UHGV virus genome: UHGV-1833545 | DNA from: a virus | Length of the DNA stretch: 10,664 nt | Strand: one strand, 5' to 3' | Part shown: positions 3,001-9,000 of the stretch, piece by piece | How the letters are laid out: every line of letters starts with the position of its first letter | Numbering within the stretch: the stretch's first letter is position 1 | Program-made: the position numbers

Positions 3001-6000
3001 CCGGAACAGCGGCGCGCGTCATCCGCACCATACAGAGGCGCTGGCATAATGGGAGCCTTATCTTCAGTAATCAGAAAGGAGGGTAATCGTTCTGGCTGTA
3101 ACCATAATCATCTGCATGATTCTGGCTTACGTTTTTAGAGCGATTGTCTTTATCTTTGAGGCTGGCAACCATGTTGGAGATAGTTTCTGGTTGCTTGCCT
3201 TCCGCCTTTTCTTTAAGGGTTTGACCTGTTTTTGCAATAAACGGGATGCGTATTTCCATCTGGTAGCTGTCTGCGCCAGTCTTTTTGTTTGTGGTTAATA
3301 CTTTCTGGAGCACTAACCCGATTTTCTTTCCATGAAATTCAGGAGCAACAAATTTACTGGCGGAAACCATATGTTGCGTTAATTGTCCAATCCCGGCACA
3401 CCCCATCATGGCGTGAACGACATTTGCGCCAAATTTGTTTTCCGTTCCGTCATTTTTCTGAACACAGACGCTAAGATATTGGATTTTACGTCCGTCGTCT
3501 GATTCGCCAGAAAACTCAATAAATTTGGCTCCTTTTTCTGATTGCTTTAGTTCTGCTTCAGTAATGGTAATGATATGAGCGCCAGTTTCGTTAATAAAAC
3601 CACCTTGCCCTGCGGTCAGAGCTGCTTCTTCGTTATAAGTAAAAATCACGTTGCTCATGCGGCGTTTTCCTTAATTTGATGAACATTATTGATGCCGTAG
3701 TAATCACAAACAGTGGCATCGACGAAAGAGAGATCGTTATCAATCTCATTGGAGTCAAACATTCCCATTGGGGATTTAACAGTGTCTGCACCGTTGTTTT
3801 TCGTGGTGAAAAAGAACTGGTCATCACGGGTAAGGGTGCGAAGAACTATAGTAAACATGCCTTCGACAGTGATTTTTTCGTCCAGCATTTTGCCGATAGT
3901 CTTCATTTTCACGCGCCCCATAGGGGTTTCTTCGGTGTGTGCAAGAAAATAGACTCTCAGGTCATCAGGTGCATCCTGTGCAGCCTTAATCACCTCCCAT
4001 GCGTGGCGGCCTATCTCAGTAAATTTATCAAACGATTTTTCTTCTGAGCGGCGCATAAACTCATTGCTCATCACATACTGGAAGTCATCAACAATAACGA
4101 TTCTTTTCCCGTATTCGTGAGCACGCTTAATTACGGCAACTATTACGTCCCATTTGTCAGTGGTAACTACGGTTCCTTTTTTTGCTCTGGCATCCCATGC
4201 CATTCTTTTGATTTAAATGGTAGCGGCTTGCCTATTGGTTTTATAAGTATTGCTTCCTCTGGATTGATATTTCTCATGCTGGTTGATTTTCCGGTGCCAG
4301 ATTCACCGAGTATTAATGTTGCAGTTCCCATAATTTTCCTCAGAATGGTAATTCGGATGGGGATGAAAGAAACTTGCGCTCATTCATGCGCTCTCTTTGC
4401 GCCTGCCATAAGCAAAGTTGTTTCTTTGATTTATCTCCCGCTTTACGCCAGTAACGAGCCTCAGCAATGTGATACTCTCTTTTTAATCGACTTAACTCTG
4501 GAGTTTTCGCCAGCTCTACCGGAATCATTTTGACCTCCATTTTCTGTAGGCTTCGACGGCCTCACGAAACATCTTTTCATCGCCAATAAAAGTGGCGATA
4601 GTGAATTTAGTCTGGATAGCCATAAGTGTTTTATCCATTTTTGGGAACTCCTGGCTGATTAAGTACGTCGATGAGTCGTTTCCATCCGTCACGTAATTTG
4701 CGGGTGATTCGTTCAAGTAAAGATTCGGAAGGGCAGCCAGCAACAGGCCACCCTGCAATGGCATATTGCATGGTGTGCTCCTTATTTATACATAACGAAA
4801 AACGCCTCGAGTGAAGCGTTATTGGTATGCATATAAAAAGGCCCTCACACTGGAGGGCAAAGAAGATTTCCAATAATCAGAACAAGTCGGCTCCTGTTTA
4901 GTTACGAGCGACATTGCTCCGTGTATTCACTCGTTGGAATGAATACACAGTGCAGTGTTTATTCTGTTATTTATGCCAAAAATAAAGGCCACTATCAGGC
5001 AGCTTTGTTGTTCTGTTAACCAAGTTCTCTGGCAATCATTGCCGTCGTTCGTATTGCCCATTTATCGACATATTTCCCATCTTCCATTACAGGAAACATT
5101 TCTTCAGGCTTAACCATGCATTCCGATTGCAGCTTGCATCCATTGCATCGCTTGAATTGTCCACACCATTGATTTTTATCAATAGTCGTAGTCATACGGA
5201 TAGTCCTGGTATTGTTCCATCACATCCTGCGGATGCTCTTCGAACTCTTCAAATTCTTCTTCCATATATCACCTCAAATAAGTGGTTTGCTGCCTAATTT
5301 CATTTTCTGGCGACCAACACAAGTCACACCCATTTCACTGCGTGGCTTGCTGTACCATGTGCGCTGATTCTTGCGCTCAATACGTTGCAGGTTGCTTTCA
5401 ATCTGTTCGTGGTATTCAGCCAGCACTGTAAGGTCTATCGGATTCAGTGCGCTTTCTACTCGTGATTTCGGTTTGCGATTCAGCGAGAGAATAGGGCGGT
5501 TAACTGGTTTTGCGCTTACCCCAACCAACAGGGGATTTGCTGCTTTCCATTGAGCCTGTTTCTCTGCGCGACGTTCGCGGCGGCGTGTTTGTGCATCCAT
5601 CTGGATTCTCCTGTCAGTTAGCTTTGAGTAACGCTCCGTGATGCTTATCTCCACGGTTGCTGTCTTGCAGCTGCATTTCGCGCTACTCAAAGCCTTCTGC
5701 TTTGAATGCTGCCCTTCTTCAGGGCTAAATTTTTAAGAGCATCACCTTCATGGTGGTTAGTACGTCCTGCTGATGGCTAAATAGTACGATTTGTACTTTA
5801 TAGAGTCAATACAAAATGTTCTAAATATAATTAGTTTTTTATAACGCTTTGTATTTAATGGGTTTATATTTTGGAAAAAGAAAACCCGACGCTAAGGTCG
5901 GGTTATTGTTGTGTGTTTTAGAGTTGTGAGGCTGTTAACTAAATGTCTCTTCAGGCCACTGGCTGGCGATAACTTTCCCTACTACGGAACAGCTATCATT

Positions 6001-9000
6001 GCATGGAATCATTGGATATTGCGGGTTTAGTGGCTGTAGGAACACCTGACCGCTATCCCTGATCAGTTTCTTGAAGGTAAACTCGTCACCACCAAGTCTG
6101 GCTATGCAGAAATCACCTGGCTCAACAGCCTGCTCAGGGTCAACGAGAATTAACATCCCGTCAGGAAAGCTTGGCTTGGATCCTGTTGGCGCGGTCATGG
6201 AATTACCTTCAACTTCAAGCCAGAACGCACAATCACTGGCTTTTTTGGTTGTGCTGACCCATCTCTCCGCATCACCTTTGGTAAAGGTTCTAAGCTCAGG
6301 CGAGAACATCCCTGCCTGAACATGAGAAAAAACAGGGTACTCATATTGTTTTTTAACGGGGGCAGATGAGTATTCGCCAACAGGTGAAAATGTACCGTCG
6401 TGGTTGAATGAGACGTTATCAATACCAAGGTATTTAAACACCACACCAATCTCGTCAAGAGATGGATGACGAGATCCGCGCAACCAGTGACCAATTCCAC
6501 CCTGCGTCATACCAAGCTCTTCAGCTAACTTCTCTTGAGTTATGCCGAGCTCTTTCATTCTGGATCTAGCCAGTTCATACCATTTCATTTTCATACCCTT
6601 ATTATTACGCTCTGTACTAAAATCATCCATGCACAAGATGTATTTTTTGTTTGCATTCTAAAAGTACATATCGTATTATTGCTTCATGGTTACTATGGAG
6701 GGCATATGAGCAACCTACGAAAATATCGAGAGTCACTGAATATCTCTCAAACAACACTTGCTAAGGCAGTTGGATGCACACAGGGAGCTATCGGACATTG
6801 GGAATCTGGTCGTCGCTTCCCAGACCTTAAAACATGCCGTGCTCTTGTTGAGTGCCTAAACAAGTTAGGCGCAAAAGTCAGTCTTGATGACGTGTTCCCG
6901 CCGGAACACAAAGCCGCTTAAGACATTCCCGCTCTTACACATCCCAGCCCTGAAAAAGGGCATCAAATTAAACCACACCTATGGTGTATGCATTTATTTG
7001 CATACATTCAATCAATTGTTATCTAAGGAAATACTTACATATGGTTCGTGCAAACAAACGCAACGAGGCTCTACGAATCGAGAGTGCGTTGCTTAACAAA
7101 ATCGCAATGCTTGGAACTGAGAAGACAGCGGAAGCTGTGGGCGTTGATAAGTCGCAGATCAGCAGGTGGAAGAGGGACTGGATTCCAAAGTTCTCAATGC
7201 TGCTTGCTGTTCTTGAATGGGGGGTCGTTGACGACGACATGGCTCGATTGGCACGACAAGTTGCTTCGATTCTCACCAATAAAAAACGCCCGGCGGCAAC
7301 CGAGCGTTCTGATCAAATACAAATGGAATTTTAACAACATCCAACGAGGTAATTATATGCGAAACAAAGGCTTTAATCCACCTGATACACACAAAGAAGT
7401 TAAGCGTTTGCGCTTCCTTCGTTCCATTGATGAAAGAACTCAAATCTCTTTTGTGAAAGTTGCCAGAACTGAGCTTCTGAAGGCTGAGGCGAGGGCGTTG
7501 CTCCCGTCTCTACCAAAAGAGGAGGGATATACGTTCATTCCAAACGCATTTCTGGAAAAGCTGCTCAAAGAAGACATATCCGTAAGTCAGTTTAACGATG
7601 TTCTTAAGGTCTTTCGTCAAGGCAGGTAGTTATGAGCAATACAGCAAAAATCTACGATTTCAGCGCCGCACACGAGCGCAGGAGCAACAGGATGGAGAAC
7701 CAGAAAACTGGTTACATTCCGTTGTACCGGAGCATTCTGAAACAGTCATGGGCGAAAGATGTTTATCTTCGCACCCTGTGGGAAAACCTTCTCCTGAATG
7801 CCGCCAGAAAGCCATACAAAGCGAATTTCAAAGGTCATGAATGGCATCTGCAACCCGGTCAACTGGTTGTGACAGCAGCTGATTTAGGTCTTCAGTTATG
7901 CGACAGACATGGCAAGCCAGCAAGCCGTGATCAGGTTGAGCGGATGCTTCAGGTTTTTGTGAAAGAGGGGATGATCTCCATTGATGGAGAGAAGCAAAAA
8001 GGTCGTGTGATAACCATCACAAATTACCATGAATATGCTCAAAAAATGGATAATTTACCCGCACATGAAGCCGCACAAACAACCGCACATGATGCCGCAC
8101 ATGATGAAGCCAGTAATGGCGCGGCTTTCAGCGCACATGCCGCACATGAAAGCGCACATGAAGCCGCACAAACAACCGCACATCATGAACAAGAAGGTAT
8201 TAACAAGAATATAAATAATACCCCCCTACCCCCCAATGGGGGAGGCGATGGGCAGGTTAAACCTGAACGTCGAAAGGCAGAACGAATCGACTACGAATCC
8301 TTCCTGAACGCCTACAACACCGAAGTCGGTGACAGACTGCCACACGCTGTTGCGGTCAACGAGAAACGCAAACGCCGCCTGAAGAAAATCATCCCGCAAC
8401 TGAAAACGCCAAACGTGGACGGTTTCAGAGCGTATGTCAGGGCGTTTGTGCATCAGGCCAAGCCGTTTTACTTCGGAGACAACGACACGGGCTGGACGGC
8501 AGATTTTGATTACCTGCTGAGGGAAGACTCGTTAACGGGAGTTCGGGAAGGGAAGTTTGCAGACAGGGGGATTGCATGAGACAGGATATCGAAGCGAGCG
8601 TTATCGGTGGCCTGCTGATTGGTGGATTAACACCAACCGCCAGCGACGTTCTGGCAACGCTTGAGCCGGAAGCGTTTTCAATTCCGCTCTACCGGAAAGC
8701 CTTCGAGGTTATCCGCAAGCAGGCGCGAAACAGAAACCTAATCGACGCGCTGATGGTTGCCGAGGAGTGCGGAGAGGAGCATTTCACGTCAATCCTGATG
8801 ACCAGCAAAAACTGCCCGAGTGCCGCAAACCTGAAGGGATATGCCGGAATGGTCGCGGATAACTATCACCGCCGTCTGGTGCTGGAAATCATGGATGAAA
8901 TGCGTGAACCAATTCAGAGCGGAACCATCGACGCATCGAGTCAGGCGATGGATGAACTTGTAAAACGTCTCTCAGCTATCAGAAAGCCCCGTGACGAGGT

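Follow-up and report, generated by a model that had tools for sequence, protein, structure and literature searches.

Which immunity does a lambdoid control region specify when only part of its repressor resembles that of lambda? The question is raised by the virus genome UHGV-1833545, in which a stretch of 10,664 nucleotides (10.6 kb, hereafter the window) represents a lambdoid early region, from a phage or prophage, that extends from int and xis on the left to genes of a replication initiator, a DnaB-type helicase and an HNH/AP2-like type on the right. Together with the left operator (OL), the segment 5935-6921, which contains the divergent cI and cro genes, reads as a complete lambdoid immunity region, or lysis/lysogeny switch, of the type represented by VT2-Sakai, Stx2-II, Nil2 and 1717, lying between lambda-type N/nutL and nutR/cII. 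We put the probability of this reading, in which the switch is probably functional, at close to nine in ten (0.88). The switch is a mosaic: the back half of the CI repressor is that of lambda, and its DNA-reading front half, Cro and the operators are of the VT2-Sakai type found in Shiga toxin (Stx) phages.

Gene content, junctions, domain identities, and the positions and conservation of the sites are the parts of this reading that were observed directly. CI has the composition of an S24-type (LexA/CI) repressor, with Pfam matches to the helix-turn-helix (HTH) family HTH_3 at residues 11-58 (E = 8.3e-11) and to Peptidase_S24 at residues 87-209 (E = 8.9e-29), an Ala-Gly cleavage site and a Ser/Lys dyad; A94-G95, S132 and K175 align with A111-G112, S149 and K192 of lambda CI, and its PDB matches are 3bdn, 8gmu and 1f39. 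In the GenBank records of Nil2 and vB_EcoP-720R6, cI instead starts at an alternative ATG, which lies at 6588 (MKW) in the window. By blastn, window positions 5941-6345 match lambda positions 37233-37637 at 94.1% identity, and at the protein level residues 86-219 are identical to lambda CI at 131 of 134 positions (98%), as against 21 of 85 (25%) for residues 1-85. A three-way alignment of the window, lambda and the Stx1 phage of Morioka V526 places an abrupt junction at 6345/6346, equivalent to about residue 100 of mature lambda CI, within the inter-domain linker and ten residues before the Ala-Gly cleavage site, so that lambda supplies the linker, cleavage site, catalytic Ser132/Lys175 and entire oligomerisation domain. 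An initial annotation of the window had described a CI that is chimeric relative to lambda, with a lambda-like C-terminal part, and the alignment bears this out. The lambda-like part of cI is itself patchy, positions ~6115-6300 being nearer to lambda and positions 5935-6030 having several variants in common with the Stx-phage allele; further exchanges within the coding part for the C-terminal domain (5935-6345) are suggested.

The initial annotation went too far in calling the N-terminal ~85 residues of CI unrelated to lambda. They belong to the same HTH_3 family, and across helix 2-turn-helix 3 BLASTP aligns them to lambda CI with 12 identities in 26 positions (E = 1e-7); judged by its sequence, the domain is a diverged homologue of the lambda HTH. 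The recognition helix is not that of lambda, reading QGGIGHWLR here versus QSGVGALFN. In lambda CI the acidic residues Glu34 and Asp38 of helix 2 contact sigma; Glu21 and Glu25 align with them in the protein from the window.

Cro was likewise found to be an HTH_3 protein (Pfam, E = 1.4e-12) and aligned with lambda Cro only weakly, over a short local stretch. Its recognition helix, CTQGAIGHW, matches MTQGGIGHW of CI at 7 of the 8 positions within TQGxIGHW, in agreement with the earlier proposal of a non-lambda cognate cro with a near-identical recognition helix, and the protein is identical to the Stx1-phage cro product at 70 of 71 positions. An 82-aa 'lambda repressor-like protein' in the PDB (28tn_A) matches Cro over its full length (E = 2.4e-16), far above the P22 C2 N-terminal domain, so that the structure of a close Cro relative exists.

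Using the N-terminal 83 residues of CI as the query, a tblastn search of 50,697 phage records returned 63 records at or above 95% identity, of which those sampled all belong to the same type, and none at 80-95%, the presence of phages 434 and 21 among those records not having been separately confirmed. Twenty records fell at 60-80%, the matches listed including short, HTH-only ones such as that in lambda-like HK630, and the next full-length matches, at ~54%, were the Salmonella P22-like phages SPN9CC, g341c and ST64T. The HTH domain, which the initial annotation had left to be sought among known immunity types, thus matches the VT2-Sakai/Stx2-II/Nil2/1717 type at no less than 95%, and the putative operators of VT2-Sakai-type phages are the same dyads that the annotation had singled out; a match to a known type with other operators, which would have refuted the annotation, is therefore not the case here. 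For this type Smith et al. 2012 named the repressor variant cI2c and the cro variant cro4 (PMC3430580).

Six putative 17-bp operators with the consensus wArTACr-N3-yGTAyTw, three at OL and three at the right operator (OR), are placed over the promoters pL, pR and pRM as in lambda (Table 1). The layout is the lambdoid one, with a tripartite operator between the divergent cI and cro genes over pR and pRM and a second set at pL. Their twelve half-sites yield wArTACr, in which A5 and C6 are invariant. The AGTAC-N5-GTACT dyads earlier proposed over the -10 elements of pL and pR do overlap these elements. The motif has one perfect copy at 5783-5797 and one-mismatch copies at 6604-6618 and 6663-6677; the set was incomplete, the dyads being part of the six longer sites. 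When a weight matrix was trained on the OR sites alone, OL1, OL3 and OL2 were the top non-training matches in the window, and a matrix trained on the OL sites likewise recovered OR1 and OR3, with OR2 weaker. Comparison of six related phages showed that the operator half-sites are conserved and that the central bases and inter-site spacers drift, most clearly at OL, where identity to the Stx-phage variants is only 78%. The loose core TACNNNNNGTA, allowing one mismatch, was not significantly enriched across the window (39 occurrences versus 28.9 +/- 5.4 expected; 7 of 200 shuffles reached 39), and its three exact matches all fall within the two control regions; the operators are therefore supported by the full 17-bp matrix, by cross-validation and by their position and conservation, not by this count. 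The AP005153 entry, as deposited, carries six putative operators, three each at OL and OR, in addition to pR, pL and pRM elements; those six are the homologues of the six window sites, differing at central or outermost bases only, and the position of the pRM -35 coincides with the annotated one. The pRM transcript would begin at or near the cI ATG (6594), giving a leaderless message as in lambda. Two further candidates, an OR2 better placed at 24 bp from OR1 (6638-6654) and a fourth OL site at 5823-5839, were rejected as poor matches to the half-site consensus that are not conserved in the Stx-phage variants.

Homology with lambda predicts how the parts would act together, including binding of CI to the sites, cooperativity, pRM activation and heteroimmunity. 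CI dimers would bind the 17-bp dyads through the non-lambda HTH domain, blocking pL from OL1/OL2 and pR from OR1; from OR2 they would activate the weak pRM through the acidic patch on helix 2 (Glu21, Glu25), and from OR3 they would shut it off. The lambda-type linker and C-terminal domain would let CI dimerise, bind cooperatively through dimer-dimer contacts and, stimulated by RecA, cleave itself at Ala94-Gly95 by means of Ser132/Lys175, so that induction should follow the lambda pattern. The 71-aa Cro, which is paralogous to the HTH domain of CI and has its recognition helix, would bind the same sites and turn off pRM and, later, pR and pL. Given lambda-type N, nutL, nutR, cII and the promoter pRE, antitermination and the establishment of repression should be interchangeable with lambda; operator specificity, and hence immunity, should not.

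Several observations weigh against a working switch with an immunity of its own. The strict consensus promoter scan did not detect pRM, and OR2, with its deviant CAC half-site, is the weakest match to the consensus. The spacing between site centres is 25 bp for OL1-OL2, 33 bp for OL2-OL3, 26 bp for OR3-OR2 and 33 bp for OR2-OR1 (32 bp in the Stx-phage variants), compared with 24, 20, 23 and 24 bp, respectively, in lambda, so the OR pair nearest pR is about one helical turn wider; which pairs would bind cooperatively is uncertain when the spacing is unlike that of lambda despite a lambda cooperativity domain. No direct binding, footprint or immunity data were found in the literature consulted for a cI2c/cro4-type repressor. 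The frameshifted int and truncated ral mean that this copy may lie in a decaying prophage, and a report of cross-immunity between lambda and VT2-Sakai, by Fattah et al. 2000, is quoted in PMC10742460. A lambda cooperativity domain paired with operator spacings of 33 and 25-26 bp, when those of lambda are 20-24 bp, is an oddity in its own right.

The lesions in int, which is split by a 1-nt insertion at 596, and in ral, which acquires a premature stop at 5018, speak for a rival view in which the cassette survives only as an inactive relic of a decaying prophage, its open reading frames (ORFs) and dyads inherited but no longer forming a working switch. Against this, none of cI, cro, N and cII is disrupted, neither lytic promoter nor any of the six sites is missing, and the half-sites have been kept while the spacers drift, which is not expected of a silent remnant. 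Furthermore, when positions 5700-7050 were searched by megablast, 122 phage records were matched, five of which cover the whole interval including the lambda-type flanks: identity is 99.0-99.3% for vB_EcoP-720R6, Louie, vB_EcoP-683R2 and Dewey and 97.7% for phi458. The occurrence of a 99.0-99.3% identical cassette in phages isolated as virions argues that the cassette works, and we regard an inactive remnant as extremely unlikely.

A functional switch of this kind is likely to be heteroimmune to lambda, as the initial annotation had predicted, since the two operator sets do not cross-score and published binding of lambda CI to such sites is weak. Weight matrices of the lambda and window operators score from -18 to -3 on each other's sites and from 13.8 to 23.5 on their own, the lambda matrix being negative on all six window sites. 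In an electrophoretic mobility shift assay (EMSA), lambda CI bound VT2-Sakai sites at 3.7-6.4 uM, lambda OL1/OR1 at 0.2-0.35 uM and Stx2-I sites at 3.7-7.7 uM (PMC10742460); as we read that table, lambda CI prefers its own OL1/OR1 to the VT2-Sakai sites by a factor of 10-25 and binds the latter no better than the Stx2-I operators, which are unrelated. That lambda CI does shift the VT2-Sakai sites in this assay can also be counted in favour of an immunity that is the same as, or overlaps with, that of lambda. Such an overlap would also agree with the 12/26 identity of the HTH to that of lambda, in which the Gln opening helix 3 is retained; with the half-sites wArTACr and TATCACC, which agree in T-A (positions 1-2) and A-C (positions 5-6); with C-terminal domains identical enough to those of lambda CI for mixed oligomers; and with the cross-immunity attributed to Fattah et al. 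2000. The second residue of the recognition helix, in contrast, has changed from Ser45 in lambda to Gly, and operator position 4 from C to T, two changes that may be linked. The VT2-Sakai record AP000363 has an amber codon at CI Gln31, the first residue of the recognition helix (GMT*GGIGHW), and its cI is annotated as truncated, as already noted by Smith et al. 2012 (PMC3430580); a phenotype attributed to VT2-Sakai CI consequently needs care. Taken with the weak EMSA binding and the negative matrix scores, these points make a shared or overlapping immunity very unlikely.

Two further possibilities raised by the mosaic structure seem unlikely on present evidence. Because this repressor has a linker and C-terminal domain with 98% identity to lambda CI, mixed dimers or dimer-dimer contacts with lambda-type repressors might form in the numerous E. 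coli strains lysogenic for more than one lambdoid prophage, and, because the recognition helix, operator consensus and layout are held in common with Salmonella phage L, cI2c/cro4 might be partially homoimmune with phage L immC across genera. Mixed oligomers would lead to cross-talk in repression or induction and might underlie the reported lambda/VT2-Sakai 'cross-immunity'.

Table 1 Features of the immunity region of UHGV-1833545 and its flanks (window coordinates).
Feature	Coordinates	Strand	Description
N antiterminator gene	5274-5600	minus	lambda-type; Pfam N36, E = 1.5e-26
nutL	5711-5741	minus	boxB 5711-5725, boxA 5733-5741
pL	5781-5809	minus	-35 TTGACT 5809-5804, 17-nt spacer, -10 TACTAT 5786-5781; consensus scan; reads towards N
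OL1 (putative)	5782-5798		TAGTACGATTTGTACTT; overlaps pL -10 and spacer; perfect AGTAC-N5-GTACT; best match of OR-trained matrix
OL2 (putative)	5807-5823		CAATACAAAATGTTCTA; overlaps pL -35
OL3 (putative)	5840-5856		TATAACGCTTTGTATTT
Intrinsic terminator downstream of cI	5875-5912	minus	stem 5883-5904, then T-run; terminator scan
cI	5935-6594	minus	219 aa counted from MKMKW
cI, lambda-type part	5935-6345	minus	linker, cleavage site, S24 peptidase/oligomerisation domain; 94.1% nt, 131/134 aa to lambda
cI, non-lambda N-terminal part	6346-6594	minus	HTH_3 DNA-binding domain; recognition helix QGGIGHW from residue 31
pRM (predicted)	6601-6629	minus	-10 AATAAT 6606-6601, weak -35 TGGATG 6629-6624; read from sequence
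OR3 (putative)	6603-6619		TATTACGCTCTGTACTA; within predicted pRM spacer and -10
OR2 (putative)	6629-6645		ATGCACAAGATGTATTT; centre 43 bp upstream of cI ATG (lambda OR2: 42 bp)
pR	6650-6679	plus	-35 TTTGCA 6650-6655, 18-nt spacer, -10 TATTAT 6674-6679; consensus scan; reads into cro
OR1 (putative)	6662-6678		AAGTACATATCGTATTA; overlaps pR spacer and -10
cro	6706-6921	plus	71 aa, HTH_3 type, not lambda Cro type
nutR	6930-6961	plus	boxA 6930-6937, boxB 6947-6961; both identical to lambda
cII	7041-7334	plus	lambda-type; translation differs from lambda CII at two residues
lambda block (blastn vs NC_001416)	4536-5290		kil/cIII and ral regions; 96-98%
lambda block (blastn vs NC_001416)	5299-5626		N; 94%
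lambda block (blastn vs NC_001416)	5688-5775		nutL to pL start; 95%
lambda block (blastn vs NC_001416)	5877-5912		terminator; 89%
lambda block (blastn vs NC_001416)	5941-6345		3' part of cI; 94%
lambda block (blastn vs NC_001416)	6928-7330		nutR to cII; 98.3%

The genes around the cassette are of lambda type, as had been recognised from the start for N, nutL, nutR and cII. N is identical to its lambda counterpart at 98 of 107 residues, including all of the N-terminal arginine-rich motif; the nutL boxB, GCCCTGAAGAAGGGC, is identical to that of lambda, and among the boxes of both nut sites a single base differs, in the nutL boxA (TGCTCTTAA here versus CGCTCTTAA in lambda). The pRE -35 motif, TTGC-N6-TTGC, lies inside cII on the minus strand at 7050-7063. 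By blastn against NC_001416, positions 6346-6927 have no lambda match, and in the three-way alignment lambda identity resumes abruptly at 6928, 7 bases after the cro stop and 2 before the nutR boxA. Junctions inside cI and near nutR, both anticipated by the initial annotation, thus fall at 6345/6346 and 6927/6928, and the account was incomplete in two respects: a third break in lambda homology occurs at 5775/5776, position 5775 corresponding to the lambda pL transcript start, and rexA and rexB have been deleted. A short block at this start, 5760-5781 (minus strand CCATCAGCAGGACG), is common to lambda, the window and the Stx phages, with neighbouring sequence that differs; it is plausibly a recombination joint between the immunity and N modules.

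Neither rexA nor rexB is present between OL3 and the cI stop (5857-5934), where just the post-rexB terminator is left, positions 5877-5912 being 89% identical by blastn to the lambda sequence immediately 3' of rexB. The same slot contains a 1047-bp ORF in phi458, an 858-bp ORF in 2B8, and orf22 and others in Stx phages; with cargo that varies in this way among related phages, the slot behaves as a moron insertion site.

Further from the switch, ral (5016-5195, minus strand) has a single-base change at 5018 that creates a stop at codon 60, leaving the protein 7 residues shorter at its C-terminus than lambda Ral. In the integrase gene (3-1263, minus strand), an additional A at 596, judged against the intact 419-aa integrase of Klebsiella phage RothC (98% nucleotide identity), leaves two overlapping ORFs (589-1263 and 3-659) and shifts the frame immediately ahead of the conserved box I arginine (TGLR|HGE); either the prophage is excision-defective or the additional base is a sequencing error. 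The int/xis end most resembles that of Klebsiella phages, and the immunity region is typical of E. coli. To the right, positions 8047-8201 of the replication-initiator gene (7632-8579, plus strand) contain imperfect direct repeats with a 12-nt period (CCGCACATGAAG-like) in two clusters 69 nt apart, which encode an Ala/His-rich AHEA/AQTT/AHDA repeat and may be origin iterons inside the initiator gene, as in lambda O, or a low-complexity linker only. Directly after the DnaB-type helicase gene, a 203-aa ORF (10031-10642, plus strand) shows an HNH/AP2-like pattern recognised by eye (…HVNGNRLDNRISNLRLATEEQNARN…GVSWYKPTGRWKSYVGY…) and is possibly a homing-endonuclease insertion.

The cassette is common. 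A 611-bp probe of the non-lambda segment (6310-6920) matched 1193 of 5426 complete E. coli genomes, about a fifth, and at least 80% of the probe was covered in 773 of these. GenBank has contained the cassette, along with annotated putative operators, since 1999-2003, and its mosaic relation to lambda CI is already in print, so its interest as a discovery is small and its practical value lies in annotation: the element can be labelled a lambda-like early region with VT2-Sakai-type (cI2c/cro4) immunity that is probably heteroimmune to lambda and compatible with lambda N/cII.

Of the named systems, the Stx phages VT2-Sakai, Stx2-II, the Stx1 phage of O157:H7 Morioka V526, Nil2, 1717, YYZ-2008 and 2851 have the same type, cI2c/cro4 with a clade I CI; it is already sequenced, annotated and discussed, and is not a new immunity type. 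The cI-cro part is ~93% identical in these VT2-Sakai-like phages (Stx2-II, Morioka V526, Nil2, 1717, YYZ-2008, 2851 and the PA series), with 92.8% nucleotide identity, or ~7% divergence, over 5935-6921 and the same six operator positions and half-sites. The Stx1-phage CI (AP005153) is identical to that of the window at 82 of 85 N-terminal (96.5%) and 130 of 134 C-terminal (97%) residues, with an identical HTH. The flanks differ: the Stx phages have an HK97-like N, an HK022-like cII and extra genes between cI and OL, whereas the window has lambda-type N, nut sites and cII and only a terminator in that interval. Smith et al. 2012 described lambda CI as having its carboxy terminus in common with CI2c and a unique amino terminus, implying different DNA binding (PMC3430580); Fagerlund et al. 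2022 grouped the repressor with lambda CI in clade I at 61% overall identity (PMC8951638); and Fattah et al. 2000, as quoted in PMC10742460, reported homology between VT2-Sakai and lambda CI that is high C-terminally and low N-terminally. A repressor with a similar overall identity to lambda CI (61.2%) and footprinted operators is known from the O104:H4 Stx2 phage BAA2326 (Chakraborty et al. 2018, PMC5977221). It was considered as the same protein and rejected: the window contains none of its three operators (ATAACTGTGCGTAATG and two others), the best match having at least 5 mismatches and none lying in OR, and BAA2326 represents another immunity type.

Among classical systems, sequence comparison puts immC of Salmonella phage L, whose genome is 99.9% identical to that of ST64T (PMC8022706), nearest to the HTH/cro/operator module. 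Cro of phage L/ST64T is identical to that of the window at 50 of 71 positions (70%), the C2 recognition helix is TQGAIGHW, and three OR and three OL sites follow the same TAC-N5-GTA consensus, with the deviant CAC half-site again in OR2. The window matrix scores 12.6-20.8 bits on the three ST64T OR sites and 9.9-19.2 bits on the three OL sites, whose spacings of 26/34 and 25/30 bp are nearly those of the window (26/33 and 25/33). C2, in contrast, falls well short of near-identity (45-47% in the N-terminal and 46% in the C-terminal domain), the host is Salmonella, and P22-type gene 24 and c1 flank immC, so this is a related DNA-binding module rather than the same cassette. The C-terminal domain of SPN9CC cI is 79% identical to that of the window. 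A module joined in this way to C-terminal domains of varying relatedness to lambda reads as domain shuffling at the linker, and the repressor as chimeric relative to lambda.

Lambda itself has the same architecture as the window, with the same linker, cleavage site and C-terminal domain (98%), N, nutL, nutR, cII, pRE and post-cI-operon terminator, and differs in its own CI DNA-binding domain, a Cro of another family, operators of the TATCACCGC type instead of wArTACr-N3-yGTAyTw, and the presence of rexAB. In hybrids such as lambda imm434 and lambda imm21, made in the laboratory or arisen in nature, the immunity cassette is replaced between conserved flanks and lambda N, nut and cII remain usable. 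There, as here, the segment from the pL start to the cro/nutR boundary has been swapped; in the window, by contrast, one junction lies inside cI, and the repressor is itself a domain mosaic.

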